From positions 4,152,757 through 4,216,756 of the forward strand of contig JAWPMS010000001.1 of assembly GCA_033344795.1 (NCBI GenBank): a stretch of 64,000 nt of DNA. The letters are read 5' to 3'. This document shows positions 1 to 24,942 of the stretch, one piece after another (the stretch's first letter is position 1; every line of letters begins with the position of its first letter). Below the pieces are notes generated by a model. It searched no databases, had not been told where the DNA came from, and saw only the letters and a program-made list of their open reading frames with translations. The stretch is from Acidimicrobiia bacterium (GTDB lineage: Bacteria > Actinomycetota > Acidimicrobiia > Acidimicrobiales > SHLQ01). The translations under genes were made by a program, and so were the position numbers.

Positions 1-651
1 CTCGCGGAGATCACCGATCGGGTGAACGAACTCAACCTGTGGATCCTTGAACAATCACTCCGAATCGTTGGAGCACTCAATCTCGAGGAGAACCAGGAGT
101 TCTCGATCGCGGTCAACGTCTCCCCCACCGAGCTCGAGCTCCCGAACCTGGTCAGCAACATCACCGACGCACTCCTCCTCTCGGGAGTTTCGGCCGAACG
201 CCTTGTCATCGAGCTCAGCGAACGGATCGTTGCCGAACGCGGGGCGACGCTTCCCGCCATCAAGGAACTCACCGAGCTCGGCATTCAGTTGTCGCTCGAC
301 GACTTCGGCGAGGGACGCACCTCACTCGCCCACCTTCGAGGCCTCCCCATTTCTCAGATGAAGCTCGACCGTCTTCTCGTGCAACAAGCATGCATGGCAA
401 AGCAGGATCGAATCATTCTCGAGTCGCTTGTTGACCTCGCACACGATCTCGATCTCTCGGTGGTCGCTGAGGGCATCGAGACCAAGGAACACTTCGCAAC
501 GGTCATCAACGCAGGCGTTGACCTTCTCCAGGGATACGGCCTCCACCGACCCATGCCAGCCGAGTCCTTCCTTGCGCTGATGGCCCATGCGAAACCTGTC
601 GATCGGTTCGTCATCGCGAGATCGAACCAAACGAACGAGGTCGAGATCTAA
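1..651 (+). CDS. EAL-domain protein (c-di-GMP phosphodiesterase family), 5'-truncated by the window edge
   Basis: The frame is open from nt 1. EAL-family motifs are visible: AVNVS, IELSER, DDFGEGRTSL, KLDR, VAEGIET, LQGYG. Stop TAA at 649-651. Confidence 0.85.
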   Translation, partial: LAEITDRVNELNLWILEQSLRIVGALNLEENQEFSIAVNVSPTELELPNLVSNITDALLLSGVSAERLVIELSERIVAERGATLPAIKELTELGIQLSLDDFGEGRTSLAHLRGLPISQMKLDRLLVQQACMAKQDRIILESLVDLAHDLDLSVVAEGIETKEHFATVINAGVDLLQGYGLHRPMPAESFLALMAHAKPVDRFVIARSNQTNEVEI

Positions 652-1262
652 TGGCGCGACCACTGCACGAATTCACTGTCACCCCAGCATCAGACGAGGA
701 GCAGGCCAGCGAGAACTGGCTCACCCGAACGACGGCGCGAGCCTTCGCTGCTGCGATCTCCGCGCTCTTGATCGCCACACTTGTGGTCAATAGATCGAAC
801 GAGGCTCTTGCGACCGACGGAACAGCTGCCGGATCGTCGCTGTCCACCGGAACGATCTCCCTTCTCGACGACGACTCTGGACGCGCCCTGTTCGACTTCA
901 GCGACATGGCCCCCGGTCGACCCATCATCCGGTGCCTCGAAGTCATCTATGACGGCACGATCACCCCCGTCGACCTCACCCTGACCACAGAGAGCAACGG
1001 CGAGCTGGCCGAATTCCTCGACGTCAAGATTGAAGCCGGCGAGGGCGCTGGCTTCGAGTCGTGCGATGGCTTCGTTCCAGACGGTCAACTGATCTCGGGC
1101 ACATTGCAGAAGCTTTCCGATGACGGCCGACTCGACCTCGGTCGGCTCGTGAACAGCGGGGAACGCCACAGCTATCGCATCACGGTCGATATTCGCGATG
1201 TGCAGGATGCGCTCGGAAAGTCTGCTTCCGCGGACTTCATTTGGGAAGTCTCACCATCATGA
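651..1262 (+). CDS. TasA/camelysin-like exported protein, paralog 1 (SipW-cognate-type signal peptide)
   Basis: Long n-region, then h-region AFAAAISALLIATLVV, then ALATDGTAAGSSLSTGTISL and F.FSDMAPG. Size is ~200 aa. The ATG overlaps the EAL stop (TAATG). Confidence 0.6.
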   Translation: MARPLHEFTVTPASDEEQASENWLTRTTARAFAAAISALLIATLVVNRSNEALATDGTAAGSSLSTGTISLLDDDSGRALFDFSDMAPGRPIIRCLEVIYDGTITPVDLTLTTESNGELAEFLDVKIEAGEGAGFESCDGFVPDGQLISGTLQKLSDDGRLDLGRLVNSGERHSYRITVDIRDVQDALGKSASADFIWEVSPS

Positions 1263-1900
1263 GCGAGCTCACCCAACAAGAACACGACGAGCTGCTGAGG
1301 CGGAGGAGCCTGATCGCAGTCGTGGCTGCTCTGCTTCTTCTGGTCATCTCGACGCCGATCTGGCTCATCTATCGAGCGAACAGTTCGACGGCTGCCTTTG
1401 CCGATGCCGAGGTTCTCGAGAACAACCGCCTCGGTGCCGCAACACTCGACATCGAAGTCGGCAATGGTGCCGCGACGTTCGAAGCCACCAACCTCGCCCC
1501 CGGAGATGTCGTGTCCGGACAGCTCGAACTCCACAATGCGGGGACCCTCCCACTCCTCTATGAGATCTCTGGATCGTCGGATGGCGATCTCCTCGCCGAG
1601 TGGCTGCGGTTTGAGCTTTGGCTCTCCCAGGACACCTGCAACATCGCAGACCCGAAGAATCGAATCGCGCAAGACCTGAGCTTCGACCCGTCGGTAGCGT
1701 CGTTCGACGAACTGAATGTCACCGGGCGCGCGGTCGTCGCTCGTGGAGGCCTCTCGGTCGGCGAACGGCAGACGATGTGTCTCGGCGCGCGGCTCGTCCT
1801 GGAAGCCCCCAATGACGTGCAAGGCCGACGAACCGAAATCGACATCGTCGTCGACGCCGTACATGACATCGAGGCAGATCAGGATGGAGGCACCCCGTGA
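1259..1900 (+). CDS. TasA/camelysin-like exported protein, paralog 2
   Basis: h-region LIAVVAALLLLVISTPIWLI, then AAFADAEVLENNRLGAATLDIEV and NLAPGD..SGQLELHNAGTLPLLY. ATG 1259 overlaps the upstream stop (ATGA). The ORF-track start at 1241 is TTG. Confidence 0.6.
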   Translation: MSELTQQEHDELLRRRSLIAVVAALLLLVISTPIWLIYRANSSTAAFADAEVLENNRLGAATLDIEVGNGAATFEATNLAPGDVVSGQLELHNAGTLPLLYEISGSSDGDLLAEWLRFELWLSQDTCNIADPKNRIAQDLSFDPSVASFDELNVTGRAVVARGGLSVGERQTMCLGARLVLEAPNDVQGRRTEIDIVVDAVHDIEADQDGGTP

Positions 1901-2385
1901 CGCGCCGACGCGATCGTTTCATCAGTGGCCTCGCCCTGCTTGTCATCATCCTCGTATCGGTCGTACTGGGTGGGCTGGCGGCTGGCTACCGGCCAGTCAT
2001 CATCCAGACGGGCAGCATGGTCCCGACAGCTCCGCCGAAGTCGCTGATCATCGCGTCTCCTCGCGACGCGTCTGACATCGCCGTTGGAGACATCATCGTC
2101 ATGCGCCGCCCGGGCGCCACACCGGTCACCCATCGAATCATCGAAATCGAGGGCTCTGCCACCAATCGATTCGCCATCACGCAAGGTGACGCGAACGAAG
2201 GACCCGACGCCTCGCCGTACCCCCTCGACGGTGAAGATCTTGTCGCGAGATGGATCCGCCCAGGTTGGGGTGGAGCAATCCAATCACTGTTCCAACCTGG
2301 TATCGCTCTCGGCGTCATGGCGCTCGCCGTGCTGGCGCTTGTTTTTCAAGCACTTCGATTCATCTGGCGCAACCCATCGCCGATG
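1897..2385 (+). other. Signal peptidase I (S26B) module of the fusion protein
   Basis: aa 1-163: TM GLALLVIILVSVVLGGLAAG, the catalytic-type motifs GSM, THR and GDAN, and a second TM GIALGVMALAVLALVFQAL. Confidence 0.7.
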
Positions 2386-5300
2386 GCCGTCGAGGCCGCC
2401 AGTTCAGCACGTGTGATCGCCGACACGTTGTCCAAGGACGCCCCGACCACCTCGAAACCGGTGAAGCCGATTCAAGGAAAGAAGCGGCGTTCCCGCAAGC
2501 CGCTCGTCGTGGCGATCTTCCCGCTCACCGCGATGTTCACGACTGGGGTCGCGTGGGCGCTTTTCGTCTCGACCGACACGGTCGCCTCCAACGATTTCGC
2601 CACGGCAGCGTGTTTCGATGCCCAGCTCGGATCGGTCCAGTCCGGCGAGACCATCCATGCGGTGAACGGCAACGTCTCGATACCGATCAGCGCGGTCGAC
2701 CCAACCGGTTCGTTCGTCATTGCCTCGATACGGAGCGCATCGAACGAACCAGCCGACAGCGTCGTGCAAGTCCAGCTCGGAACCGGCGGTACATCGGTCG
2801 AACTCGATCGGCTCACCGACAATGGTGCGCCGCCACCGATCACCGTCTCCTGGTCGGTCGTCGAATACACGTGCGGAGTCACCGTGCAACGAGGGGTGGC
2901 CAACGGCAATGGCTCTGGCCAGGTTGACATCCCCATCGCAACCGTCGACCTCGCGACGTCTTTCGCCCTGGCTTCGACCAGCCCGGCGGCAAGCGCAACC
3001 CAATTCGACGCCGACGACAGCCTTCTTTTTGAACTCGTGTCCGCAGATACGCTGCGTGTCCGAACCGCGGGAGCGGCGATCGCGGCCACACGGTCGATCT
3101 CGTGGCAGGTCGTCAGTTTCGACGACCCGGGAGATGCGTCGATTCAGACGGTGACGGGAAGCCTTGGCGCCGCAGCGACGACCACCACCCTCGCTCTGCC
3201 ATCTCCGGTCGATCCGACGTCGACCTTCATCCTTGCCTCCGCGGCGACTGCCAGCACCGGCGCTGACATCAGCGAACGTCAGCTCCGGTCTCGCCTCATC
3301 GATGCCAACACGATGGAGGTGAGCCGACTCGGAAGTGGCACCGCCATGGAGATCTCGGTACAGGTCGTCACACTTCGAGATGGCACCTCCGTTCGTCATG
3401 GCTTCGTCGACTTCGCAGCTGGACAACCGGTTCGGACCGTGAAGATCGAGCCGGTCGACCCGCAGCGATCGACCGCGCTCTCGACCGTGGTCACCCCTGG
3501 AGTAGCCAGCGGGGGGCAGACCGACTACACCGTCGATGACCTCGCAGGAGAGGCAAGCGCCACATTTGCGATCACCGATCCAGAAACGCTCTCGGTGCAA
3601 CGAGGGAGCACCGCATCGAACGCATCGTTTGGCTGGCAGGTCATCGAGTGGGCTGGGCCCGGTTGGTGGAATCCGAACTACAACTTCCGTCAACGGATCG
3701 ACGTGGACACCGGATCTGCGGCTGCGCCTGGCGAGTACACCCTGCCATTCACGATCGATCACGCCGCACTCGTCACCGCGGGGCTGGCGCAATCGGACGG
3801 CAGCGACGTGCGCGTGCTCCGTTGGGACGGGACGGCGTGGACGGAACTCGACCGCATTCTCGATGACGGCGCATCCTGGAACCATTTGGCGACAACGCTT
3901 CGGTTCCGCACGACCGACGCCATCGATGCCGACAGCACGAGCACGTACTGGGTGTACTTCGGAAACACCTCGCCTGCGCTGGCCTTCGCTGACCCCGAGA
4001 ACGTCTGGTTGCTGACAGAGGACTTCGAATCCGGAACCCTTGGAGATTTCGAGGACAGGACCGGCAGCACCGGCTGGTATGCAGCGTTGCCCTGGACTCG
4101 CCGGATACCCGTCTCCGTTCCAGCGGGACGAACCACTGCGCCCCTGACGGACTTTCCGTTGCTCGTTTCGTTGACCAGCGCCGATCTCGCATCGAACGCC
4201 CAGGCCGATGGCTCTGACATTCGTTTCACCGCGTCCGACGGAACCACCCCCCTCCCCCATGAGATCGAAGGGTTCGATGCCGGCACCGGCACGCTCGACG
4301 CGTGGGTCCGTATCCCCACGCTCGACTCGGCAACCTCGACCACGATCTACCTCTACTACGGAGCTCCGGACGCGCCGACGCAGGAAGATGTCCGCAACAC
4401 CTGGTCGACCGAGTTCGGCGGCGCATGGCATCTGTCGCGCGATCCTGCAGGTACCGCGCCTCAGGCCGACGACTCCACCGTTCGCAATCATGACGGTCTG
4501 AGCCGCGGCGCCATGACGACTAGCGATCTCGTTCCCGGACTCATCGGCGGTGCCATCGACTTCGACGGTGTAGACGACATGTTCGAGACCGATCCGTTCG
4601 ATCTATCGGTCGGCGGGCTCACACTCTCTGGATGGGTGCGACTCGACAGCTACACCACCCAACCTCGCATCATCAACAAGGCGTACAACCCGAGCAACCG
4701 AGTCTTCGAACTGAGCGTCGATGGTTCCAATGTTCGAAGCCGTCTGGTTCTGGATGGCTCCGAGAACCTCTTGCTTGGTTCCGGGGATGGCGTGACCCTT
4801 GGTGCATGGCATCACCTGGCCATGACGTGGGACGGGGTGACGATCAAGCTCTATCTGAACGGCGTCGAGGTGGCCTCGCGAGCGGCCAGCGGCACACTCG
4901 CCAGCGATCCGGCGATGCCTGTCACGATCGGCGGAATCGAATCGCTGAATCGCCAGCTCGATGGGCTGATCGATGAAGTGCGGATCGATCGGGTCGGGCG
5001 CAGCGCAGCCTGGATTGCGGCGTCCGAATCAAACCAACGCAATCCCGGTGCCTTTCACACGTTCGGGCCTGTCGAGACGGGGAGCTGGCTCGGGCAGGGA
5101 ACGTGGACGGCTCGAAAACCGATTGCGATCGACGCAGACCTCGTCTCGGCGGATGCGACCGACTTCACTCTGCTCGTCGAGGTCATCGACCCCGAGCTGC
5201 AGGTCGGAGCGACGGCGTCGGGAAATGACTTGGTCTTCACCGACGCCAATGGAACAACTCGGCTCGATCATGTTGTCGAATCATGGGACGACGCCACCGG

Positions 5301-5454: not shown

Positions 5455-5468
5455 CCTCCATCACTGCT

Positions 5469-5488
5469 CTTGCGGGCTCGCCTGCAAG
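5469..5488 (+). promoter_or_regulatory. Intercistronic hairpin (8-bp stem including one G-U pair, 4-nt loop), no T-tract
   Basis: cttgcggg-ctcg-cctgcaag, located 15 nt after the fusion-gene stop. Confidence 0.3.
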
Positions 5489-5543
5489 CAAACTCCGCCA
5501 CTCAACCATCACCACAACGACCACCTCGGTGGCGTCAACACAT

Positions 5544-5549
5544 AGGAGG
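5544..5549 (+). promoter_or_regulatory. Shine-Dalgarno AGGAGG for TasA-like paralog 3
   Basis: AGGAGG sits 8 nt upstream of ATG 5558. Confidence 0.7.
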
Positions 5550-5557
5550 TCATCACC

Positions 5558-6178
5558 ATGACCATCACGACTGAGCCCGAGGCTCCTGCGGTCAACAGAC
5601 GCAAGGGCAACGGCACGAAAATATTGGCAACACTTGCCGTGTTGTTCCTCGCAGGCACGATCTTTTCGATTGCTTCGCTTGCATTGTTCACCGACCAAGA
5701 GACTGTCGCTGGAAACGCGTTTGCAACAGGAACGGTCGACCTACTGGCGACGCCGGCAACGGCTGTGGTCACCGCAGCCGCGATGGCGCCCGGTGACCAG
5801 GTCACCGCGCCGCTCGACATCGCGAACAGCGGCTCATTGGAGCTGAGGTACTCAGCGACAACGACCACCACCGAAAACACGCTGGCTTCTCTGCTCGCGC
5901 TGACGGTGAAGACAGGAGTGACCGTGTGTGACGATGCCAACTGGGCCACCGATGGCACGGTCATCTACTCCGGAACCCTCGGGTCCACGGCAACTGCGCC
6001 TCTCTTTGGCTCCGCCGTGCAGGGTGCGCAAGGTGGCGACAGAGTGCTTGCCGCTGGCGCGAACGAAGCGTTGTGCATCAACGTGACATTGCCGCTCGCA
6101 ACCGGCAACGCCGCCCAGAACATCACCACCACTGCCACGTTCGCGTTCGACGCAGAACAAACAGCGAACAATCCATAA
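5558..6178 (+). CDS. TasA/camelysin-like exported protein, paralog 3 (most canonical)
   Basis: NRRKGNGTK, then ILATLAVLFLAGTIFSIASLALF, then TDQETVAGNAFATGTVDL. MAPGD..TAPLDIANSGSLELRY. C-terminal FAFDAEQ. Confidence 0.75.
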   Translation: MTITTEPEAPAVNRRKGNGTKILATLAVLFLAGTIFSIASLALFTDQETVAGNAFATGTVDLLATPATAVVTAAAMAPGDQVTAPLDIANSGSLELRYSATTTTTENTLASLLALTVKTGVTVCDDANWATDGTVIYSGTLGSTATAPLFGSAVQGAQGGDRVLAAGANEALCINVTLPLATGNAAQNITTTATFAFDAEQTANNP

Positions 6179-6201
6179 GCCCCGGCGGTAACAGCGTGGT
6201 G

Positions 6202-15200: not shown

Positions 15201-18200
15201 AGTGGGTGGCGCGGGCGCAGGCGAGGGCAACGTGATCTCGGCAAACCTCGGCGATGGGGTGATCATCGCCGACTGGTTGGCGCTTGGAACCACCGGCACG
15301 GTCGTCGAAGGGAACTTGATCGGCGTTGAAGCCGACGGTTCGACGCCTCTTGGAAATGGCGGCCACGGAGTGCACGTCGACCCGGTCACCGGCAACCGTA
15401 TTGGCGGAACCGCTGTCGGCGCCGGAAATGTCATCGCCAACAACGGTGCGACCGGGACGCAGATGGCGCCGACCTCAGGCACGAATACCGTTCTCGGCAA
15501 CTCCATCTACGCGAATGCCGACATTGGATTGGGCCTCGGCTGGGATGGAGTGACCCCGAACGACCCCGGTGATGTGGATAGCGGACCCAACGGATTGCTC
15601 AACTTTCCCGAAGTCACCGCGGCGTCGGTGTCGGCCGGTTCGGTGACCGTCGACTTCGAGCTCGACGTACCCGCTGGCGATTACCGCATCGAGTTCTTCA
15701 CCAACCCTTCGGGCGCGGATCCGACGGGTTACGGAGAGGGTGAGGTCCTTGCGGACGCACTCACGATTTCTCACACGGGCTCGGGCGTCGAGTCATTCTC
15801 GACAAGCTTTGCCGGCGCGATCGGTGACGTGATCACCGCCACGGCGACAGAGGACCTCGGCGGATCTCATGGAGCCACGTCGGAATTCTCGGCAGCCGCG
15901 ACAGCCACCGCCACCGACACGATCGTCAACTCGACGGGCGACGCAGGCGACGCCGCTGTTGGCGACGGCGTTTGTGACACGGGGGCCCTCAACAGCGCCG
16001 GCGTGACGGAATGTACGCTCCGCGCCGCGGTGCAGGAGAGCAACAACCTCGGGGCGGCGGCGATCGTCTTTGACATCCCCGCTACCGAGTCCGGTCATGA
16101 TGCCGGTGTGTGGACCATCTCACCGAGCGCTCCATTCGACGACCTCACCGCTCCGGTGAGCATCGATGGTTCGACGCAACCCGGATGGAGCACCACGCCG
16201 GTCATCCAGATCGACGGGTCGGGATCCGGAGCGGCCGCAGACGGCTTCCGGCTGCTTACTGGTTCCGACGGTTCTGAGATCCGCAGCCTTTCAATTGGCA
16301 TCTACGACTCAGACGCGCTCGAGATCCAAAGCAATGATGTGGTCATCGCCGGCAACCACCTCGGCCTCGACGCTGCAGGCACAACTGCGACCCCCATGGC
16401 GACTGGGGCAGGAGTCAACATCTCCGGCGCAGCGCGGACCACGATTGGGGGATCGACCGCGGTTGACCGCAACGTTATTGCGGGTGGGCCCAACGGTGTC
16501 ATCGTCGGCGGTGCCTCGACCGACACCGTGATCATCGGCAACTACATCGGAACGGACGTGACGGGTTCGGCTACGGCTGTCACCTTCAGCCAATACAGCA
16601 TCTACGTTCTCGGCGGCAGCGCCGACACCAGGATCGGTGGACCGCTGACGACCGACCGCAACATCATCGCATCACGCGGGATCTACATCAGAGACGAAAC
16701 CTCCGACAACGTGCTGATCGAGAACAACTCGATCGGCGTGGGAGCGGATGGGACGAGCCCTGTCAGCGTGGCCTCACGCGCCATTCTCGTCTCGGGAGGC
16801 TCCGATGACATCGATGTGATCGACAACGTGATTGGCAACGCGTACCGCGCGGTCGAGATCAACGGCGCAACCACAAACAGCACGGTGCGGGGCAACACGA
16901 TCGGCACCGATGCAGGTTTGACAACCGACCATGGCACGACCGTGGAGGCCATCGAGATCAGCGGTGGCGCCGCCGGCATCCAGATCGGCGGCACGACGCC
17001 AGCGGAGGCCAACCGTATCCAGTTCGTCGGTCTTGGCTTCCCAGCGATCAGCGTCGCTGACGCCGCAACCGATGACGTGCACGTGATGGGCAATTCCATC
17101 CTGCATGATCACGGTGCCATCGACCTCGGAGCCGACGGCCCAACGTCCAACGACCCTGGCGACATCGACGGCGGCGCAAACGACCTGCTCAACTTCCCAA
17201 CTCTGACGGTGACCAACACGACCGGAAGCGGGCCGTTCACCGTCGACCTGGACGTCACTCTCGACACGGCGGCAGGTGATCATCGAATCGAGATCTACTC
17301 GAACGCTGACCCTGGATTCGGTGGGCTGGGCAAGGGCGAGGTTCTCGAGCACACGTTCACGTTCACACACACCGGCAGCGGCCCCGAAACCGTGTCGACG
17401 ACATATGTCGGCTCGTCGTCGACCGCGTTGTCCGCTACGGCGACCGAAGAGTTCGGTGGTGGCACATACGGGTCAACGTCGGAGATGTCACCGATTGCGG
17501 CCATCGCTGCAGACGCGGTCGTGAACTCGACCGGTGACTTGGGCGACGCCGACCTGAACGACGGACAGTGCGACACGGGCGGCACGAACAGCGACGGTGC
17601 CACCGAGTGCACGTTCCGGGCAGCGATCGAACAAACCAACCGGGCCATCGCCTCGAGAGTGGATTTCGCCATCCCGAACACAGACTCCGGCTACGACGTC
17701 GGCGGCTACTGGACCATCAACCAGGCCACCGACTACGAGGACATTTTCGCCTCGACGACCGTCGATGGCAGCACCCAGCCTGGATGGGACGGGTCACGTC
17801 CAGTCGTGTTCATCAACGACAACTCCTCGGGAACCGACCATTTGACCGCATTCGGGGACGACGTCACGCTGCGCTCGCTCGCCCTGGGAAACCCAGGTGA
17901 CGATGGGGTTCAAATCGAAGGCAACCGGGCCACGCTCGATGACCTGTGGATCGGCATCGACCCCACGGGAGCTGATGCAGGGCGTCCTGGAACGGGCAAC
18001 GAAGGTGTCATCGTCTACAACGGGGCCACAGACCTCCTGATTTCCGACAGCCGTATCGCCGGCTTCGACTCCGGCATCATCTCGAACTCTGGGACCATCG
18101 ACGCGACGGTCAGCAACACCGAGATCTTCAATAACCGCAACGGCGGTATCGCGTTCGACAATCTCGGCCGCGTCACCGCGATTGGCAACTCGATCCACGA

Positions 18201-21195
18201 CAACATCGGACTGGGCATCGACCTGAGCGTCAACAATGGCATCCCCCTACCGAACGATCCGGGCGATACCGACACCGGAGGCAACGACCTCCTGAACTAC
18301 CCCGTTCTCACCGGAGCCACGATCGGGGCTGGCTCCCTCGACATCACCTACGACCTCGACGTCCCTGCAGGCACGTACCGGATCGAGTTCTTCGACAACG
18401 CAGCGCCCGACCCGTCTGGCAACGGCGAGGGGGAAACGTTCGTAGCGTCGGCGACGCTCACCCACGGCGGAGGAGCGGCGTCGTATCTCACGACAATTCC
18501 GGGCGTGGTGGGCGACGTCATCACCGCAACGGCCACCCCCGATCTCGGCGGAGGAACCTACGAGGGGACATCGGAGTTCTCCAACGCACTCGCCATCGGG
18601 GTGGTGTTCGTGAACTCGACAGCCGATGCCTCTGATGCTTCGGCTGGCGATGGCGCCTGTGACACCGGGGGCCTCAACAGCGACGGGAACGCTGAGTGCA
18701 CCTTGCGAGCAGCCATCGAGGAGACCGCTGCGAACTCGGGCTACGACCACATCCGCTTCACGATCCCCGAGACAGATCCCGGCTTTGTTGCTGGGGCGCC
18801 CTCGTACTGGACGATCTCGCCAGCAACCACGCTCCCGTTTGTCTCCGACACGATCGAGATCGATGCAACGACCCAACCGGGGTGGGTCGACAGTCCGGTC
18901 ATCGAACTCGATGGGTCTGGCGTGGTGAGCGCTGGCGCCGACGGCATCAATTTGGCGACGGGGATGACTCTACGGGGTTTCTCCATCACGGGGTGGCTCG
19001 ACGACGGTGCGTTCAGCGACCAGGACGACATCGTCGTGGCTGGCAACTGGTTCGGCATCTCGCCCGACGGTACCCCGCTCGCCAATCAGGGCACTGATCT
19101 CGTTCTCTATGGCGCAAGTGATGGCGCGACGATCGGCGGTCCCGACGCAGCCGACACCAACATCTTTGCCGCCGGTGGCTCCGAGGACGGAGTCATGCTC
19201 AGCGGCGATACAACGAACGCCGTCGTCGAGAACAACCGATTCGGCGTCGCTGCTGATGGGGTGACCGGCCTTGGAACAGCCACTGCGGAACTTCTGGTCA
19301 TCGTCGACAACGCTTCGGACATTCTGGTGGTCGACAACCAGTTCGGTGACGCACCCAACGCGTCTGTGACCTTGTGGGCCGATCCGACGAACGTCACCAT
19401 CGTCGGCAACATCTTCGGCACGGATGACACGGGAACGGCGGTTCTCCCCGTGGGCCAAGCCGTGTATGCGCAAGCCGCCGGCAGCGCACGATTCGGCGGG
19501 ACCACCTCGAGCGAGTGGAACACGATCCGCAACGTCCTCTGGCAGGCGGTCTTGCTCGACGCAGGCCACACCGGGTCCTTCAGCTACCTCGGAAACTCGA
19601 TGACCGGTTCCGGCCTGTATGGGATCGACCTGAGCGGAGACGGAACCACATCCAATGATGCTGGTGATGCTGACAGCGGTCCGAACGACAACCTGAACGT
19701 CCCCGAGATCTCATCGGTCGTCGAGAGCGGTGGCACCGTGCGGGTCTCCTTTGGGCTCGACGTACCGGCGGGCACCTACCGGATCGAAGCGTTCACGAAC
19801 CCGAGCGGCGCACATCCGACCGGGTTCGGCGAGGGCGAGGTCTTCGAAACATCGGCGACGATCACGCACGCGGGCTCCGGTCGACAGAGCTACGAGGTCA
19901 CGTTCCCCGGAAGTATCGGCGAGCTGGTCTCGTTGACGACGACGCAAGATCTTGGTGGCGGACTGTTCGGCGCCACGTCGGAGTTCTCACAGACCGTTCA
20001 AGCAACCGACCCCGCCCTCATCCTCGAGGACGACCGCTCAGAACGACGTTCCGACCTCGCCAGTAGCGGCGGGGTGAGCATCAGCGGTGACAGCGCGCCT
20101 GGTCAGGCAGGGCTCGCCGTGCACTTCGACGGGTCCAACGACCGTTTCGTCGGCCCAGCGGTCGACATCACCGACGCGGCGCTCACGATGTATGCCAGCT
20201 TCAATGCCGACGGGCTCACCGGCGACCCTGTCCTGCTCTCGAAGAGGACCAGCGCCGGATCGCCGATCTACGAGCTCTCGATCGATTCGGGGACCGGCGA
20301 GGTCGTCGCCGAAGTACGCACGAACAGTGGCCCAGCGGTCGCACGGGGCGGTTCCATCGCGGCTGGGACCTGGCATCAGGCGCTCGCCACGTGGGACGGC
20401 GCCGAGTTGGTCTTGTTCGTCGACGGGCTCGAGGTCGATCGCGTCGCCCTCACCGGAGCCCTTACGGTCGATGTGGCGACCGATGTCATCATCGGCAGCA
20501 CGAGCACGAACTCGGCTCCGTTCGATGGTCTGATCGACGATGTCCGCGTCTCTCATGAAGCCACGGATAGCGCTACCGCAGACGCCTTGGCGCAAAACCA
20601 AACCATGGTGGGGTTCGTCTCGGTGGGCGGCGAACAGACATCGGCACCCTCGCCGTGGACGACGAGCAGCGTGCAGACAAGGTCCGGCTCCTTCGCGCTG
20701 TCGGCTCCGGAAACGAGCGGATCCGGCGCCGCAGCATGGGCGGTGGCCACTGGTATCGACGAACCTGGACTCGTCTTTGAATCTTGGTGGTGGTTCAGCT
20801 CGAACACCGGCGTCGATTTGTCCTCTGGCACCCGTGCGGGTGAGGCGCCAACCGATCAGTACGAAGCTGCACTGACATCGCCGTCGGGTTGGGAACTCCG
20901 CCAACGAAGCGGCGGCACAGGGTCGTTCGACGCTCCCGCCGCCGGCTCGCCAACCGCTGGTGCGTGGGTCAACGTCGAGATTCGAACAGATCAGTTCGGA
21001 GCCACTCGCCTGTTCATCGATGGCAGCGAAGTGACGACCACAACTCCGCAGGGTTCTGCGCTGTTGAGCGGCTCGATGGCGCTACGCGCAGGACTGCTCC
21101 CCACTGGCCAGACCTGGTACATCGACGATGCTCGCGGCCGAAAGCTGGTCACGCCGGAGCCCGTCACCTCAGTGGGCCCCCTCGACAGGAATTGA
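6202..21195 (+). CDS. Giant secreted multidomain protein (~4997 aa): PKD, NHL propeller, cadherin-like, LamG, Ca-binding repeats, FG-GAP propeller, six CSLREA/beta-helix modules, two C-terminal ConA-like domains
   Basis: Single open frame. Sec-type signal peptide MTLSVHRRAAAAALLCALAVIVTMSAVAAA. ATG 6202 lies 23 nt after the TasA-like stop; the ORF-track start at 6073 overlaps that gene. Domain motifs are listed under the sub-features and findings. Confidence 0.9.
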   Translation: MTLSVHRRAAAAALLCALAVIVTMSAVAAANVAQDDPTAVPGIPLISVDGDAKAEAGRPYLLDVTVEGIDQSQVSEWTVSWGDGTATKGTGSPGIVEHVYEHVGSAHQITVSVITSGGDTLSNAALVISNYDTARAPTLHRITGQPASDQLVGDATDNIASVLVGADGVLYAIDDVANTILRFDLDRKTRFEVPLDRESVVRRPRAMAFDAEGHLLVADASSNAIHQIDVDSGQIVRTIAGDEHLNRPSALIIGPQGDLYVTDAADDDIERFDFTTGRHVSTFATFEPGATPTSLVSGPNDTLLVSLPGAGRIASVSSSGQVANFGADVTTPDQLAVGPDGALWVSDYWNDTVERFDLKSGETLDREPIVEGTAGPRGLSFAPDVSVTVIAPSDAPSSDPSPDELTAQEWRESLPEDQNIDELIFVANDGEAEPQLDFIAQSDDYIAVIADNTIEVALDQAESDQLVTMELEDATEKPPSGASTDTRVAFDDVYDGIDAVYSDDEGELEYSFIIEPGADVDDISLDFGGAETLQITEQGDLFIDVSEGPDLLSTAPFTFQFIDGRRVVIESSYVIRPDGRVGFGLGAYDPTRPVVIDPTLTAATNLLMVTGTGTAVGTDATKQALFQSWGWTVTLIDDDSVGSFAGAAAANDVLYVSGTARFDIAYDVRDLDIGIVNENFSAWNGLLNYGSQPQAFTTGTTLNIVDNSHYITSPFATGSLAIHSVGDDINYWPSDSAPLPAGVTVLAESPTSTNHEALHVAETGTTLYSAFTAVNRRVWFPSDYADPANYTTDYETLLERSLDWAAGNDAPPAAPQSIAVANPDTASTAQDLATTLDPSANDADAEGDPIVEIDVTDPANGSVVINGDETVTYTPDPGYTGSDSFDYWAIDSGAGLTNYWGLAGGGIDSVGSANGALSGTTTVPGDFGDALSFNEINDRVTVPDFAYGSDFSLSFEFKLDDNTGSLFQYVYSHGDINAVNSVNVFINEASHGSDPNILRTVVRDGNDTLDNAALQTSIASFVGDGLWHTYTVTADSSAGLTVSIDGVAVATDATRGTGVVDPTGSAYFGTRQDLAADRWYGGSLDSVQIYNRALTGSEVTDLHAGTNRSTVSITVAPCTVDTDGDGLWDCEEDANTDADGDPATNPGPDTDGDTTPNYLDNDDDDDGALTSAENADPNSDGDPRDAQDTDHDGEPDYLDTEAGASRTPVAAEQKISNTSGGLTGSWSASDWAGTAVASIGDLDGDGITDIAVGTNGDDDGGANHGAVWVLFLNADGTVRAEQKISDTAGGFTGTLESGDQFGSALTGPGDIDGDGIPDLVVGARLDDDGGSGRGAAYILFLNTDGTVRAEQKISDAQGGLATTLDTNDEFGHAVEGIGDLDGDGIPDIAVGAWGDDDGGSGRGAVYILFLNSDGTVRAEQKISDISGGLAASIPDGSNFGVGLGDIGDVDSDGITDLAVGAWNDTDGGSARGAVYVLMLNADGTVAGEQKISATAGGFGGTLDASDDFGAGVSGIGDVDGDGTPDLAVGAPRDDDGGSSRGAVWLLTLNTDGTVGTTSKISSTAGGLTGPLDDNDQFGYEVTSLGDLDDDGSLNLLVGAWGDSDGASAAGAGYILDLSPPSSTVTVNSTGDLGDATPGDGSCDTGFLNSETNTECTLRAAIEEANASAAIDTIHLDIPTSDSGYAAAPLAFTITPGSVLPAITSSVVLDATTQSEYAGRPVIQLDGKDATGATAGILIHADDVTVSGFIVHSFDDEGIEVSNFSSSADRSTIINNWIGIDASEATRANLGDGVLVTSGSAANTIGSPGQGNVISGNVGAGVLIRGVDSDDNVVQANLIGVGSDGSTAVPNGSDGIQISDTTTGNRIGGTLATEANTIANNGGDGVAVLATAGSDNAVLRNEIHSNAGMGIDIDPNGVNANDPGDTDGPGPNDLLNYPSITSATTSGIIAILNGTYDVPAGSYRFDFYKNPSGADASGFGEGEQWVATSTLSHSGSGAEGWGAAFVGAVGDIITITVTEDLGGGNYGSTSEFSSAASVTAPAVVVNSTGDAADQTPGDGSCDTGGVNSQLATECTLRAAIEEANALAGGDTIEFNMPSSESGHASGVWTISPATIYPELTERVELDASSQPGFVGTPIVELDGSSLSVSSEHGLQLGVGSDGTTVRGLSISSFPGAGLYLEGSDSHTIAGNYIGLKADGSTAAGNRYGMYMSASSSTTIGGTTPADRNVISANTFSGVAVYNSIGLGLESLDTVIIGNYIGTDSTGMLARGNARDGLFVVNGSSRTQVGGSSPGEGNLISANTDAGVYVGSGSMVDTVVVGNTIGVSVDESIELPNEIGVEVGWSERTIVRDNVIGSATSHGVLLSSADNAVVAGNTIGTDAAGSAAWTIGGHGVLLENTSELNMIGGTLTADANTITNAALSGVAVPATAGSNNSILRNEIAANTGLGIDLDVDGVTPNSSVDGWLDYPDITSVVSSGGTLTTEFDLDVPAGAYRIEFFNNLSGADASGFGEGETFVHATTATHTGSGTESFSVNFAGSFGDIITATATQDLGGGSFGSTSEFSGAVAVLPVAVVNSTGDLGDATPGDDICDTGGTNSGLDAECTLRAAIEEANASADVDTIEFDMPTSEAGHSAGVWMIEPGTQLPEITQVVMLDASTQPGWTATPIVEIDGSSAGATTDGLLISGDDVTISGLAINRFAADGVKVLVGAQNTTLRSNHIGLDASGLIDRGNGDRGVDLQAGSGPTTVGGTNAIDRNVISGNGDDGIIIFGSDDNIVINNLIGTDVSGLSAIPNAADGVVLASGSADNTIGQPGFGNVLSGNANDGIEIDDTTGPNTIQSNIIGLGLDGDALVPNGRYGIVLYNGANTTQIGGGGADQGNVISGNATDGIYIDGNNNAATTANVIEGNLIGTDGTGTLERGNVRYGIRVDNAATSTVIGGPGAGNTISGNGDDGIYLSDSGTDNTIIQANHIGTNAAGDDAIPNGDRGVQIESGASFTQVGGAGAGEGNVISANLGDGVIIADWLALGTTGTVVEGNLIGVEADGSTPLGNGGHGVHVDPVTGNRIGGTAVGAGNVIANNGATGTQMAPTSGTNTVLGNSIYANADIGLGLGWDGVTPNDPGDVDSGPNGLLNFPEVTAASVSAGSVTVDFELDVPAGDYRIEFFTNPSGADPTGYGEGEVLADALTISHTGSGVESFSTSFAGAIGDVITATATEDLGGSHGATSEFSAAATATATDTIVNSTGDAGDAAVGDGVCDTGALNSAGVTECTLRAAVQESNNLGAAAIVFDIPATESGHDAGVWTISPSAPFDDLTAPVSIDGSTQPGWSTTPVIQIDGSGSGAAADGFRLLTGSDGSEIRSLSIGIYDSDALEIQSNDVVIAGNHLGLDAAGTTATPMATGAGVNISGAARTTIGGSTAVDRNVIAGGPNGVIVGGASTDTVIIGNYIGTDVTGSATAVTFSQYSIYVLGGSADTRIGGPLTTDRNIIASRGIYIRDETSDNVLIENNSIGVGADGTSPVSVASRAILVSGGSDDIDVIDNVIGNAYRAVEINGATTNSTVRGNTIGTDAGLTTDHGTTVEAIEISGGAAGIQIGGTTPAEANRIQFVGLGFPAISVADAATDDVHVMGNSILHDHGAIDLGADGPTSNDPGDIDGGANDLLNFPTLTVTNTTGSGPFTVDLDVTLDTAAGDHRIEIYSNADPGFGGLGKGEVLEHTFTFTHTGSGPETVSTTYVGSSSTALSATATEEFGGGTYGSTSEMSPIAAIAADAVVNSTGDLGDADLNDGQCDTGGTNSDGATECTFRAAIEQTNRAIASRVDFAIPNTDSGYDVGGYWTINQATDYEDIFASTTVDGSTQPGWDGSRPVVFINDNSSGTDHLTAFGDDVTLRSLALGNPGDDGVQIEGNRATLDDLWIGIDPTGADAGRPGTGNEGVIVYNGATDLLISDSRIAGFDSGIISNSGTIDATVSNTEIFNNRNGGIAFDNLGRVTAIGNSIHDNIGLGIDLSVNNGIPLPNDPGDTDTGGNDLLNYPVLTGATIGAGSLDITYDLDVPAGTYRIEFFDNAAPDPSGNGEGETFVASATLTHGGGAASYLTTIPGVVGDVITATATPDLGGGTYEGTSEFSNALAIGVVFVNSTADASDASAGDGACDTGGLNSDGNAECTLRAAIEETAANSGYDHIRFTIPETDPGFVAGAPSYWTISPATTLPFVSDTIEIDATTQPGWVDSPVIELDGSGVVSAGADGINLATGMTLRGFSITGWLDDGAFSDQDDIVVAGNWFGISPDGTPLANQGTDLVLYGASDGATIGGPDAADTNIFAAGGSEDGVMLSGDTTNAVVENNRFGVAADGVTGLGTATAELLVIVDNASDILVVDNQFGDAPNASVTLWADPTNVTIVGNIFGTDDTGTAVLPVGQAVYAQAAGSARFGGTTSSEWNTIRNVLWQAVLLDAGHTGSFSYLGNSMTGSGLYGIDLSGDGTTSNDAGDADSGPNDNLNVPEISSVVESGGTVRVSFGLDVPAGTYRIEAFTNPSGAHPTGFGEGEVFETSATITHAGSGRQSYEVTFPGSIGELVSLTTTQDLGGGLFGATSEFSQTVQATDPALILEDDRSERRSDLASSGGVSISGDSAPGQAGLAVHFDGSNDRFVGPAVDITDAALTMYASFNADGLTGDPVLLSKRTSAGSPIYELSIDSGTGEVVAEVRTNSGPAVARGGSIAAGTWHQALATWDGAELVLFVDGLEVDRVALTGALTVDVATDVIIGSTSTNSAPFDGLIDDVRVSHEATDSATADALAQNQTMVGFVSVGGEQTSAPSPWTTSSVQTRSGSFALSAPETSGSGAAAWAVATGIDEPGLVFESWWWFSSNTGVDLSSGTRAGEAPTDQYEAALTSPSGWELRQRSGGTGSFDAPAAGSPTAGAWVNVEIRTDQFGATRLFIDGSEVTTTTPQGSALLSGSMALRAGLLPTGQTWYIDDARGRKLVTPEPVTSVGPLDRN
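6337..7360 (+). other. PKD-like domain followed by NHL-type beta-propeller repeats
   Basis: PKD: WTVSWGDGT...HVYEHVGSAHQITVSV. NHL: LYAIDDVANTILRFD, HLLVADASSNAIHQID, DLYVTDAADDDIERFD, ALWVSDYWNDTVERFD. Confidence 0.6.
8944..9515 (+). other. LamG/concanavalin-A-like domain 1 of the giant protein
   Basis: ALSFNEINDRVTVPDF...FSLSFEFK...WHTYTVTADS...GGSLDSVQIYNRALTGSEV. Confidence 0.6.
9553..9803 (+). repeat. Thrombospondin-type-3-like Asp-rich Ca-binding repeats
   Basis: DTDGDGLWDCEEDANTDADGD...DTDGDTTPNYLDNDDDDDG...DPNSDGDPRDAQDTDHDGEPDYLD. Confidence 0.6.
9826..11055 (+). repeat. FG-GAP/integrin-alpha-like propeller repeats, period ~69 aa (six full units plus a partial one)
   Basis: Recurrent (D/N)(Q/E/D)FG...GD(L/I/V)D(G/S/D)DG(I/T)(P/T)D(L/I).VGA..DDDGGS.RGA.(Y/W)(I/V)L.LN.DGTV..EQKIS. 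Confidence 0.75.
11077..20010 (+). repeat. Six tandem CSLREA-cap, parallel beta-helix (PbH1) and C-terminal beta-sandwich modules
   Basis: Module starts (VNST(G/A)D) are at 11077, 12331, 13924, 15925, 17521 and 18610. Each has EC T(L/F)RAA(I/V)(E/Q)E(A/S/T)N, then N.IG...G.(S/T)GN-type helix turns, then NDPGD.D.G.N(D/G)LLN(Y/F)P ... YRIEFF.NPSGAD..G(F/Y)GEGE ... TSEFS. Confidence 0.8.
20110..21160 (+). other. LamG-like domain 2 plus a further ConA-like C-terminal domain; no LPXTG-type sorting signal seen
   Basis: AVHFDGSNDRFVGP...WHQALATWDG...FDGLIDDVRVSHEA, then WVNVEIRTDQFGATRLFIDGSEV...WYIDDARG. The protein ends ...VTSVGPLDRN. Confidence 0.55.
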
Positions 21196-21307
21196 TCTCG
21201 ACTTTAGCTCTCTTTGGGTAGTTCGGCCCTGGGACGACGACCACTCTGCGTGGTGTAGTTGTGGTGGGTTGACCGCACACCGCCGTCACGAGATTGAGAG
21301 CTCCCTG

Positions 21308-23671
21308 ATGTTTCCCCGATCTTCTACCGTTCGAAAGAGCTTCCGCAAGGCCGTCACCGCCGGGCTCGTTCTGGCGCTCGCCGCAACTGCGGTCTTGAGC
21401 GCGGGACCGACCGACAGCGCCTCCGCTGGCGTCCTGGACGAGCCGTTCACCCCTCATCCATCACTCGTGCCGGACGTACCCGAGACCGGCTACCCGATCA
21501 TTCTCACGACCCCAGCCGACGGACGAAATGGAAATCGCCAGACCCGCGCCGTTGACTTGATCGGCGACTACATCGTCTCAGGTGGCGACTTCTACAACAT
21601 CGAACTGCAGAACGGTCAGACGATCGAGCAGCGGTATCTCAGCATCGTCGATGCATCGACAAAGCAGCTCGTCTGCACGAACCTCGACGTGAACAACGAC
21701 GTTCTTGCCATCGCACCAGGTCCAGATCGCAACACGGCCATCATTGGCGGACGGTTCAACACCGTGACGGGCGCCGACGGAATCGTGCGAGTCAAGCCAA
21801 GGGTTGCCAAGATCGACCTCGATACGTGTCAGGTCGATCCCAACTGGGCGGCGGGCGCAATCAACTCGAAGGTCACCGAACTCGCAGTCAACGGCAACCG
21901 CCTCTTCGTTGGCGGCGATTTCACCGCGATCGCCGGAACGTCGATCGAGCGTCTGGCAGAACTCGACCTCACCACAGGTGTCATCAACCCGAACTTCAGC
22001 TTCGTCTTTGGCGGCGAACTCTCGACTCCAATCCGGGCGCTCGAAGTGAACACGGCTGGGACACGCGTGGCGATCGTCCATCGGACCACGTCGATCAACG
22101 GCAACTCGATGCGCGGCACCGCGATCTTCGACGTGAGCAACCCCAACGCCCCGACCCTCACGAACCACCGGATGAGCACCAACGCAAACGCCTACACCAA
22201 CTACACCCGAATCCAAGACGGCGCTGTCTCCCCTGACTTCAGCCGTATCGGCATCGCCGCTGGCTTCAGTACGGTTGCCGACTACGTCACCCTTGTGCCG
22301 ACGACCGAAGCCGCCGGCCAGCTCAGCTGGCAACACTTCATGCGAGATAGCAACACCGGTATCGGCATCTCGAACAACGCCGTCTACGTCGGAGGTCACT
22401 TCTGCAAGCCCGATGATGGTCCTGGACCGACCGTGATCTCGGCACCGAACAGCGGCCCGAGTAGCTGCACCGGAAGCAACGCATTCCCCGGCGGCGCATG
22501 GCGCACACAACTCGCTGCTCTCAACATCGCAGACGGAACTCCTCTCGATTGGAACCCTGGCAACGACTCCTTCCGGGGCGCAACAGCGGTGACGGTCGTG
22601 AGCCGAGGTCTCCTCGTCGGATACGACGGCGCTCGCACCAACAACCGCCGAGTCGGCGCAACGGCGTTCTTCGACTTCGGAGCGACCCCAGATCCCCGCG
22701 AGGATCAGACCTGCAGCGCATCGGTGGATGCAAACTTCGATGTGAACCTGACCTGGACCCTTGTCGCCGGTGGCGTGGACGGTGACAACTATCAGGTGCG
22801 TCGCGACGGCGTGTTCGTCGCAGATGCTGGAAACACCACGACGTACACCGATTCGCCGGACAACGGCACGTACACCTACCGAATTCGCACATTGCTCAAT
22901 GGTGTGGAGTGGGACACGACGTGTGAGCCAACGGTGACGGTCGACGCCCCTCCTCCTCCCGCCCAGACCTGCACCGCCACGGAAGCCAACGGACTCGTGA
23001 CGCTCACCTGGACGGCGATCGCAGGCGAAAACAACTACATCGTCCGACGCAACAACACCTACATCGCCACCGCAGGCAACGTCCTCACCTTCGATGACAG
23101 CCCCGGCAACGGCACCTTCACCTACGTCATCCGATCAAACATGGCCGGAGTTCAGACCAACACCACCTGCAACCCCGACATCACGATCGACGACCCACCA
23201 CCACCCGGACAAACCTGCACCGCCACGGAAGCCAACGGACTCGTGACGCTCACCTGGACGGCGATCGCAGGCGAAAACAACTACATCGTCCGACGCAACA
23301 ACACCTACATCGCCACCGCAGGCAACGTCCTCACCTTCGATGACAGCCCCGGCAACGGCACCTTCACCTACGTCATCCGATCAAACATGGCCGGAGTTCA
23401 GACCAACACCACCTGCAACCCCGACATCACGATCGACGACCCACCACCACCCGGACAAACCTGCACCGCCACGGTGAACGGTGATGGTTCGGTCACGTTG
23501 GTTTGGACCGCTATAGCGGGCGAGAACACGTATGTGGTACGTCGCAACAACAGCTGGCTGGAAACGGTGGGCAACGTCCTCACCTACACAGACACCGGTG
23601 CAGCTGCTGGAGACACGTACGTCATTCGATCGAGCATGGGCGGCGTGCAAACCAACACGACCTGCGACTGA
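21308..23671 (+). CDS. Secreted beta-propeller protein with four C-terminal Cys-bounded ~82-aa Ig/FN3-like repeats (~787 aa)
   Basis: Signal peptide MFPRSSTVRKSFRKAVTAGLVLALAATAVLSAGPTDSASA. Propeller-type repeats: GG(D/R)F..(I/V).G...R.A..D. Repeats: QTC.A...LTW(T/A)..AG...Y.VRR(D/N)....A...T(Y/F).D.....TY.IR......TTC. Confidence 0.8.
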   Translation: MFPRSSTVRKSFRKAVTAGLVLALAATAVLSAGPTDSASAGVLDEPFTPHPSLVPDVPETGYPIILTTPADGRNGNRQTRAVDLIGDYIVSGGDFYNIELQNGQTIEQRYLSIVDASTKQLVCTNLDVNNDVLAIAPGPDRNTAIIGGRFNTVTGADGIVRVKPRVAKIDLDTCQVDPNWAAGAINSKVTELAVNGNRLFVGGDFTAIAGTSIERLAELDLTTGVINPNFSFVFGGELSTPIRALEVNTAGTRVAIVHRTTSINGNSMRGTAIFDVSNPNAPTLTNHRMSTNANAYTNYTRIQDGAVSPDFSRIGIAAGFSTVADYVTLVPTTEAAGQLSWQHFMRDSNTGIGISNNAVYVGGHFCKPDDGPGPTVISAPNSGPSSCTGSNAFPGGAWRTQLAALNIADGTPLDWNPGNDSFRGATAVTVVSRGLLVGYDGARTNNRRVGATAFFDFGATPDPREDQTCSASVDANFDVNLTWTLVAGGVDGDNYQVRRDGVFVADAGNTTTYTDSPDNGTYTYRIRTLLNGVEWDTTCEPTVTVDAPPPPAQTCTATEANGLVTLTWTAIAGENNYIVRRNNTYIATAGNVLTFDDSPGNGTFTYVIRSNMAGVQTNTTCNPDITIDDPPPPGQTCTATEANGLVTLTWTAIAGENNYIVRRNNTYIATAGNVLTFDDSPGNGTFTYVIRSNMAGVQTNTTCNPDITIDDPPPPGQTCTATVNGDGSVTLVWTAIAGENTYVVRRNNSWLETVGNVLTYTDTGAAAGDTYVIRSSMGGVQTNTTCD
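22706..23668 (+). repeat. Four ~82-aa Cys-bounded protein repeats
   Basis: Units start at 22706, 22964, 23210 and 23456. Units 2 and 3 are identical. Confidence 0.85.
22967..23474 (+). repeat. Perfect 246-bp direct tandem duplication (2.07 copies)
   Basis: nt 22967-23212 and 23213-23458 are identical base for base when read side by side. The identity continues 16 nt into the next unit. Confidence 0.9.
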
Positions 23672-24406: not shown

Positions 24407-24424
24407 TACGAGAAGGAGCCGATG

Positions 24425-24865: not shown

Positions 24866-24871
24866 ACTCTA

Positions 24872-24911: not shown

Positions 24912-24942
24912 ACAGCTCAGATTGTCGGTGTGAACCGAAGAA

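Follow-up and report, generated by a model that had tools for sequence, protein, structure and literature searches.

Among the protein scaffolds of Gram-positive biofilms, TasA fibres serve as the model and, to our knowledge, relatives of TasA beyond Bacillus, Clostridium and a few archaea have been recorded only in domain censuses. Here we describe a gene cluster at the left end of a 64,000-nucleotide window of DNA from an Acidimicrobiia bacterium (contig JAWPMS010000001.1), which encodes three TasA-like proteins, a SipW-type signal peptidase fused to a large ectodomain, and a giant beta-helix/LamG protein (Table 1). In the Bacillus fibre, residues 28-38 of TasA form a donor strand that completes the next subunit through contacts that include F29, I32 and F39 (PMC9674648). 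TapA, the second SipW substrate, has another fold; it donates a similar N-terminus to TasA and starts the filament (PMC9674648, PMC10151520). In Pyrobaculum, AbpB has been proposed as a filament initiator with adhesin domains, and a census records PF12389 proteins in Actinobacteriota (PMC9245690). That census was the sole pertinent find of a literature search on the fusion, DUF2341, CSLREA, TasA in Acidimicrobiia, signal peptidases with GGDEF domains, and biofilm or cyclic di-GMP (c-di-GMP) in Ilumatobacter. The search yielded no paper describing the gene combination, which a preliminary description of this DNA, made from the sequence alone, had likewise not recognised as a known system.

How does the locus compare with these systems? 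As in the Bacillus tapA-sipW-tasA operon (structures 8AUR and 5OF1), a dedicated peptidase of the endoplasmic reticulum (ER)/archaeal type is encoded beside TasA-fold substrates, the substrates combine a special signal peptide with a conserved N-terminal segment (A28-F39 in TasA), and there is an accessory substrate whose N-terminus resembles a donor strand and whose body is not TasA (TapA in Bacillus, a DUF2341/LamG ectodomain here). New with respect to that operon are the peptidase fusions, one of them to the accessory substrate itself, the three paralogous subunits (four with Tas0, encoded upstream) in place of one, the giant beta-helix/LamG protein as a conserved neighbour, and c-di-GMP genes where Bacillus has SinR-type control. 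Because the peptidase scores below the cut-off of the Bacillus SipW equivalog model and a TapA homologue is absent from the locus products (Pfam and NCBIfam profiles), the locus would be a system that works like tapA-sipW-tasA and not an orthologous operon. With Pyrobaculum AbpA/AbpB it shares a TasA-like donor-strand pilin beside a larger secreted putative initiator or adhesin; the archaeal operon lacks a dedicated peptidase, whereas here there are two, both fused to other domains (PMC9245690).

In the reading we favour, a conserved Acidimicrobiia cluster specifies an extracellular fibre or matrix system of the TasA type, and its right-hand two thirds lie in the window. Taken jointly with the full explanation developed below, we give it a somewhat better than even chance. 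The peptidase-and-substrate logic that the preliminary description had proposed is borne out, since two of the three small proteins exceed the Pfam threshold and the third is joined to them by a chain of profile matches and by its predicted fold.

Small proteins related to TasA

TasA-like 2 (26.8 bits) and TasA-like 3 (38.6 bits) exceed the gathering cut-off of Pfam Peptidase_M73 (PF12389), 22.5 bits, and are full-length paralogues of each other (BLASTP 1e-9; hhalign E-value 1.2e-18). TasA-like 1 gives zero Pfam or NCBIfam matches; it is 100% identical to a protein from an Acidimicrobiia metagenome-assembled genome (MAG), and every source that names it labels it a hypothetical protein. It had been counted among three TasA-like proteins, a claim that stands by Pfam for the other two and for this one by profile-profile and fold comparison only. 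The TasA-like 1 family (36 sequences) matches that of TasA-like 3 over 169 columns (hhalign E-value 2.6e-6) and, more closely, the upstream paralogue Tas0 (3e-18), which in turn matches TasA-like 2 (3.4e-11). The four paralogue families are thereby linked in one chain (3e-18, 3.4e-11, 1.2e-18, 2.6e-6).

Two comparisons lead directly to TasA itself. A profile built from six TasA-like 3 orthologues matched, among 177,635 PDB sequences, only the TasA 8AUR fibre and the 5OF1 monomer (E-value ~5e-7), and the match covers the N-terminal strands. The AlphaFold 2 (AF2) model of TasA-like 1, with a predicted local distance difference test (pLDDT) score of 75-90 over residues 67-203, has TasA 5of2 and 5of1 as its top two PDB fold matches (E-value 4e-4, template modelling score 0.43-0.46). 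Judged by these profile and fold comparisons, TasA-like 1, 2 and 3 are all tied to TasA by homology.

SipW-type cleavage is predicted after A52 in TasA-like 1 (NEA/LATDG..., the slash marking the cut here and below), after A45 in TasA-like 2 (STA/AFADAE...) and after A42 in TasA-like 3 (SLA/LFTDQE...). The conserved N-terminal segment that follows in TasA-like 3 has F at +2 and N-x-F at +11 to +13, and both the N and the F of N-x-F are invariant in the family. A loose, hand-derived signal motif occurs once each in TasA-like 1, 2, 3 and the peptidase fusion and is absent from the giant protein and gene 7. TasA-like 3 is the most conserved of the small proteins, with 53-68% identity between loci in which the peptidase fusion has 39-52%, and by analogy with Bacillus TasA it is the probable major fibre subunit. 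Among the families that the preliminary description had named, Peptidase_M73 (two of the three small proteins), TIGR04214, DUF2341 and Laminin_G_3 were matched; TIGR04088 and TIGR04089 gave no match at E <= 0.01 in the small proteins, in an NCBIfam release whose inclusion of both models is unconfirmed.

A peptidase joined to its own putative substrate

The 1185-residue product of the fourth gene had been called a SipW fusion. The fusion is real, and what had been overlooked is the internal signal peptide that makes it a candidate fusion of enzyme and substrate. The protein scores 66.9 bits against TIGR02228 (archaeal/ER-type signal peptidase I; cut-off 51.85 bits), and the catalytic residues S40 (TGSM), H79 (THR) and D98 (GDAN) are invariant among 24 homologues. 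Against NF046067, the Bacillus SipW equivalog, it reaches 33.4 bits where the cut-off is 190 bits; the peptidase is therefore of the same enzyme type as Bacillus SipW and not its orthologue.

The layout of the protein (Table 1) was derived from an alignment of 70 homologues and an AlphaFold model (mean pLDDT 78). Residues ~157-241 follow the pattern of a second signal peptide, since a cytoplasmic basic region is succeeded by a hydrophobic core and then by an A-x-A site. The predicted internal cut, AWA/LF after Ala221, falls between nucleotides 2559 and 2560. The basic patch, the third transmembrane segment (TM3) and the motif AWA/LF...N-x-F-x-T..C are kept in 48 loci; within the fusion family N232 and C239 are invariant and F234 nearly so. 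The segment after the cut, LFVSTDTVASNDF, has the same spacing as its counterpart in TasA-like 3, LFTDQETVAGNAF, with 7/13 residues identical, and the two signal regions align with an hhalign E-value of 3.2e-5. The monomer model shows residues 225-240 as disordered, as would be expected of a free strand. As far as sequence can tell, peptidase and substrate are here parts of one polypeptide, and the internal signal peptide of the substrate shares the cleavage site and N-terminal motif of TasA-like 3. Four proteins of the window (TasA-like 1, 2 and 3 and the ectodomain of the 1185-residue protein) thus have a signal-peptide, cleavage-site and N-terminal motif in common.

Beyond this motif the ectodomain is a different protein. 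The idea that its body is TasA-like, or a repeated TasA domain, was rejected (hhalign E-values 0.017-0.69 for three segments against three paralogue families). Fold matches of the ectodomain model are lectins and concanavalin A (ConA)-like carbohydrate-binding modules, and a Foldseek search with the whole fusion model returned lectin-domain matches only, with none for the N-terminal beta-sandwich repeats. Since the ectodomain shares just the N-terminal strand motif with TasA-like 3, a TapA-like role would follow from likeness and not from family membership.

How widespread is this arrangement? About 70 full-length fusion homologues were found, at 39-97% identity, and every one with a named source is from Acidimicrobiia or Actinomycetota. 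A SipW-domain search of 1.84 billion representatives returned mainly stand-alone peptidases, truncated copies of the same fusion, and one double-SipW-cupredoxin fusion. The last, P0344, is a metagenomic protein of 577 residues with two tandem SipW domains, a membrane segment, the junction ...SSSNVFSTSSCFS and a cupredoxin (plastocyanin/azurin-like) domain. Its junction carries the same N-x-F-x-T..C motif, and SipW-substrate fusion is therefore not restricted to a DUF2341/LamG passenger.

An unfused version is found in two cultured members of the Pseudonocardiales, Lentzea tibetensis and a second Lentzea (loci L051 and L052), in which three adjacent genes are separate. They encode an ectodomain homologue (39% identity, 1778 residues), a TasA-like protein that ends in EQTANNP like TasA-like 3, and a stand-alone SipW-type peptidase (TIGR02228, 89 bits). 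The same signal motif is present, and in the ectodomain protein the post-cut motif (GVAAFYTYLGTSAGNVFSSAAC) stands behind an ordinary N-terminal signal peptide. Unlike the window, Lentzea has a different gene order, no adjacent c-di-GMP genes, and in the 1778-residue protein a merger of features that are here split between the fusion and the giant. The unfused Lentzea genes and the cupredoxin fusion are two independent observations that support the enzyme-substrate reading. The fusion in turn points to the recognition target of the peptidase and to the protein that may start or anchor the fibre, and the Lentzea version provides a cultured organism in which such predictions can be tested.

Conservation, the giant protein and the upstream module

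Loci were collected from one genome per GTDB species and compared by tblastn. We found 53, about 45 of them with a complete fusion and nearly all in Acidimicrobiales or other Acidimicrobiia MAGs. Neighbours were counted in 43 non-redundant loci whose flanking DNA was long enough, the denominator varying with the neighbour. TasA-like 3 lies directly 3' of the fusion gene in 38/39 loci, and the giant protein follows TasA-like 3 in 33/36; upstream, TasA-like 2 is present in 33/42, TasA-like 1 in 33/41 and the GGDEF-EAL protein in 32/40. About eight loci, such as L002, have a short form with the fusion, TasA-like 3 and the giant only. The proposal that the genes are kept together in relatives accordingly holds for the peptidase fusion, TasA-like 3 and the giant in ~40 Acidimicrobiia genomes, and these counts point to a class-wide, strongly conserved actinobacterial version of the TasA/SipW system. 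They also give a hierarchy of subunits, in which TasA-like 3 is nearly constant, the others are optional, and the giant is a regular partner.

The giant protein combines PKD, NHL-type propeller, DUF7948, cadherin/Big_9, LamG, FG-GAP propeller, TIGR04214 CSLREA, Beta_helix/NosD and Laminin_G_3 domains. TIGR04214 scores 65.9 bits (cut-off 25) in 4 stretches, and five CTLRAA motifs (residues 1655, 2073, 2604, 3271 and 4166) are each followed by Beta_helix/NosD matches. Its size varies among loci from ~2400 to ~5000 residues, and in some loci it is encoded by two genes. The homologues retain the beta-helix modules and a C-terminal tail, ...W.VDD...RKLVTPEP..S.GPLDRN, which lies at 21139-21195 in the window and recurs in L002, L004, L005 and L050. 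The unfused Lentzea DUF2341/LamG protein has a like tail, RKLI.PEP...VG..DR (L051, 15242-15298), and a like C-terminal domain. As no hydrophobic segment follows, the tail is not a PEP-CTERM-type signal. The giant has an ordinary AxA (Sec) signal peptide without the SipW-type motif, and both it and gene 7, whose signal peptide is also of the ordinary AxA type and lacks the motif, were rejected as SipW-type substrates. A 207-bp repeat in the giant gene (3.2 copies, 74% match, 10012-10674) corresponds to FG-GAP blades.

The absence of a sortase-type anchor had been remarked on before, and none was found in the locus products. No LPXTG-like sortase signal is present in the locus; the loose pattern L[PA]x[TAS]G gave three internal chance matches, all in the giant protein. 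C-terminal membrane segments are absent from all the gene products, and in the fusion protein, the giant and gene 7 there is neither a hydrophobic segment at the C-terminus nor an LPXTG-like motif near it. The earlier suggestion that TasA-like fibres act as scaffold or anchor for the giant would at present derive from co-conservation.

The genes listed in the preliminary description are all present; the start of the window is not the left end of the cluster. In a near-identical strain (L059) and in orthologous loci the cluster runs ~7 kb further upstream, and the EAL domain at the window's edge is the 3' end of a ~990-residue SipW/multi-transmembrane/GGDEF/EAL protein. In L059 the cluster begins directly after leuS; the TasA-like 1 of this strain is 100% identical to that of the window, and a few residues are different at its EAL C-terminus. 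The 992-residue protein of L059 scores 62.8 bits against TIGR02228 over residues 25-158, with TGSM, THR and GDAN present, and the SipW domain is followed by a multi-pass membrane region and then by GGDEF and EAL domains with motifs that look intact. The orthologues in L001, L003 and L004 have the same architecture. The literature search gave no report of c-di-GMP turnover domains joined to a signal peptidase. Further upstream lie Tas0, a fourth TasA-like paralogue of ~190 residues, and a protein of ~880-990 residues, a putative family 2 glycosyltransferase (GT2) with a PilZ domain and partial BcsA/CelA matches; in L059, L003 and L004 its partial TIGR03030 matches (67-89 bits) are far below the equivalog cut-off and its PilZ match is above the Pfam cut-off. 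Wherever the flanks permit judgement, TasA-like 1 and 2 accompany the second peptidase. On this co-occurrence and the conservation of the core, the locus looks like two modules: an upstream one (synthase, Tas0, SipW-GGDEF-EAL, TasA-like 1 and TasA-like 2) and a core (peptidase fusion, TasA-like 3 and giant). The PilZ synthase and the SipW-GGDEF-EAL protein together suggest c-di-GMP control of a combined polysaccharide-protein matrix.

BcsA-PilZ cellulose synthase and the Lap system, with its giant adhesin LapA, receptor LapD and protease LapG, are c-di-GMP-controlled matrix systems. They resemble the present locus in bringing a processive, PilZ-bearing GT2 enzyme, a membrane protein with GGDEF and EAL domains, a peptidase and a giant adhesin held non-covalently into one functional context, the GT2 and the adhesin being putative in the present case. 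The resemblance is conceptual only. Here the peptidase is a signal peptidase where Lap has the cysteine protease LapG, the motifs of GGDEF and EAL look intact and not degenerate, and in the monoderm host type I secretion genes are lacking nearby. Little is known of the role of c-di-GMP in Acidimicrobiia, a group with hardly any cultured members that is plentiful in the sea, in fresh water and in soil.

Two MAGs have two copies of the fusion gene on separate contigs (L023 and L032 in seacave_32; L008 and L031 in the other), and in seacave_32 the upstream module is absent at both. The closest species-level relative of the fusion (L006, CAXMRH010000059.1) has 69% identity, and its locus retains the complete conserved order of genes. 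The MAG was assigned to Chthoniobacterales (Verrucomicrobiota), probably through a mistake in binning or labelling.

Proposed assembly, alternatives and flanking genes

Why would a peptidase be fused to its substrate? We think it moderately probable that the locus as a whole is a c-di-GMP-controlled TasA-type fibre or matrix locus with a self-substrate peptidase; fibre formation, cleavage and the role of the giant we infer by analogy. The peptidase domain would take off the special signal peptides of the TasA-like substrates and would also cut its own polypeptide after Ala221, freeing a ~960-residue DUF2341/LamG lectin-like ectodomain that, if uncut, would remain tethered to the membrane. TasA-like 3 would polymerise by N-terminal donor-strand exchange as Bacillus TasA does, with TasA-like 1 and 2 (and Tas0) as minor or alternative subunits. 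As the N-terminus of the ectodomain copies the predicted donor strand of TasA-like 3, it could prime or anchor the fibre in the manner of TapA; free or tethered, it would give the first strand, and its lectin-like domains would serve as adhesin. The giant would leave by the ordinary Sec route and act in the matrix together with the fibres, either as an adhesin or as a polysaccharide-binding or -modifying component. The upstream GT2-PilZ synthase, Tas0 and SipW-GGDEF-EAL protein would place the whole under c-di-GMP control. A bolder version, which we regard as doubtful, has both SipW peptidases act as signalling and assembly devices: one would release itself from a lectin-like initiator or adhesin that seeds a heteropolymeric fibre, the other would tie c-di-GMP turnover inside the cell to the extracellular presence or processing of fibre subunits and so gate the PilZ synthase, and the giant would be displayed on the fibre-polysaccharide scaffold. 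If true, a second messenger would here be coupled to secretion in a circuit for which we know of no described counterpart.

Several observations weigh against the fibre reading. Similarity to TasA is mostly limited to the N-terminal ~80 residues, the fold match of TasA-like 1 is modest (template modelling score ~0.45), and the ectodomain body is neither TasA-like nor TapA-like. N-x-F also precedes the cupredoxin passenger, so the motif may be a peptidase-recognition element and not a donor strand. As the giant has neither the motif nor a recognisable attachment device, its link to the fibres comes from gene neighbourhood and shared domain types. The upstream genes lie outside the window and are, for this genome, read from L059 and the orthologous loci, and the fused form has been seen only in uncultured MAGs, with no cultured isolate among them.

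The same domains could instead belong to a polysaccharide-centred matrix locus, in which the giant is a lyase, epimerase or hydrolase, the ectodomain its carbohydrate-binding partner and the GT2-PilZ protein the maker of an exopolysaccharide, with the TasA-like proteins as surface accessories that form no fibre. Beta_helix/NosD and LamG/ConA-like domains do prevail in both large proteins, the ectodomain's fold matches are lectins and carbohydrate-binding modules, and a BcsA-like synthase stands upstream in many loci. Yet no polysaccharide lyase or epimerase catalytic family was matched, and the core occurs without the synthase in several loci; the synthase gene was detected in only 19/33, a count that tells against our own c-di-GMP scheme as well. 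A dedicated SipW-type peptidase and four TasA paralogues would also be left unexplained. We know of no activity for CSLREA/beta-helix modules, which counts against the idea too, and we consider it unlikely.

Far less probable still is that the TasA-like proteins are camelysin-type surface proteases or antimicrobial proteins that the peptidase merely exports, with no polymer formed. Pfam does put two of them in Peptidase_M73, "camelysin metallo-endopeptidase", but TasA-like 1, 2 and 3 have neither HExxH nor any other metal-binding protease motif, so that the family's metallopeptidase label does not apply to them and a metalloprotease function was rejected. Their conservation, moreover, peaks at the N-terminal donor-strand region and the first strands, and the solved member of the family, TasA, is a jellyroll fibre subunit (PMC9674648). 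What of TM3 itself? It might be an uncleaved third anchor, the lectin-like ectodomain of a tethered peptidase holding substrates or the giant at the surface as the missing anchor of the locus. The three-segment topology with a cytoplasmic basic linker is compatible with this, there is no other anchor in the locus, and the class-wide retention of the fusion suggests that tethering matters. On the other side, the AxA/LF site and downstream motif are conserved just as in substrates of the cleaved type, and in Lentzea the motif stands at the N-terminus of an unfused protein. We judge a permanent anchor improbable; it is in any case a sub-variant of the fibre explanation and does not contradict it.

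Within the window, all seven co-directional plus-strand genes of the preliminary description are present as listed, with the same junctions and, by Pfam and NCBIfam profile scans, the same domain content. TAA and ATG have one common base at 651, ATGA overlaps lie at 1259-1262 and GTGA overlaps at 1897-1900, and the remaining genes are separated by 103 nt (5455-5557), 23 nt (6179-6201) and 112 nt (21196-21307). G+C content is even over the region (60-66%). A promoter scan returned 0 promoter-like sites, and terminator-like sites were as frequent as in shuffled sequence.

Table 1. Features of the locus in the window, layout of the fusion protein (aa, amino acid residues) and upstream genes in related loci
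Feature	Location	Strand	Basis or remark
EAL 3' end (last 216 codons)	1..651	+	Pfam EAL E 1.6e-42; window start cuts gene
TasA-like 1, 203 aa	651..1262	+	No Pfam/NCBIfam match; hhalign and AF2 fold
TasA-like 2, 213 aa	1259..1900	+	Peptidase_M73
SipW-type peptidase fused to DUF2341/Laminin_G_3 ectodomain, 1185 aa	1897..5454	+	TIGR02228
Peptidase module of fusion	1897..2376	+	AF2 secondary structure; motifs TGSM, THR, GDAN
Predicted internal signal peptide (aa 201-221) and donor-strand-like segment LFVSTDTVASNDFATAAC (aa 222-239)	2497..2610	+	Motif conserved in 48 loci
TasA-like 3, 206 aa	5558..6178	+	Peptidase_M73
Giant Sec-secreted protein, 4997 aa	6202..21195	+	Profile scans
Five CSLREA/beta-helix modules of giant	~11074-20121	+	
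C-terminal LamG-like pair of giant	20122-21192	+	
Gene 7, 787 aa: signal peptide, propeller-like region, four ~82-aa repeats	21308..23671	+	Outside conserved system
TM1	Fusion, aa 3-28		
Catalytic beta-domain	Fusion, aa 32-121		
TM2	Fusion, aa 134-157		
Variable, disordered linker	Fusion, aa 157-200		Basic patch KRRSRK at end
TM3 (predicted internal signal peptide core)	Fusion, aa 201-224		
Conserved sequence GVAWA/LFVSTDTVASNDFATAACFD	Fusion, aa 217-241		
Confident beta-sandwich domains, three DUF2341 domains, one LamG domain	Fusion, from aa 241		
Putative GT2-PilZ	L059 1677-4307; L003 2267-5212		Upstream of window
Tas0	L059 4304-4894; L003 5209-5811		Upstream of window
SipW-GGDEF-EAL	L059 4894-7872; L003 5808-8783; L004 5861-8788; L001 5714-8773		3' end at 1..651 of window

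Gene 7 had been listed as a member of the system, and this claim was rejected: no homologue occurs in any of the 58 compared loci, and in L002, L004 and L005 unrelated genes follow the end of the giant gene. Propeller proteins related to it form a large family in Acidimicrobiia, two members of which, in L061 and L062 (52-59% identity), lie in housekeeping neighbourhoods, between leuA-like and Fer2/molybdopterin dehydrogenase genes and near rpsL-rpsG-fusA-tuf. The genes 3' of gene 7 are of the housekeeping kind (dienelactone hydrolase, an extracytoplasmic function (ECF) sigma factor, trp genes and dnaE). An unannotated open reading frame of 187 codons (24422-24985) and the ECF-type sigma factor gene (25248-26033) lie ~1-2 kb past gene 7. 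Within gene 7, a 246-bp tandem repeat (2.2 copies, 97% match, 22937-23474) encodes near-identical 82-residue modules of the Fn3/immunoglobulin-like type, which suggests either recent expansion or assembly collapse.

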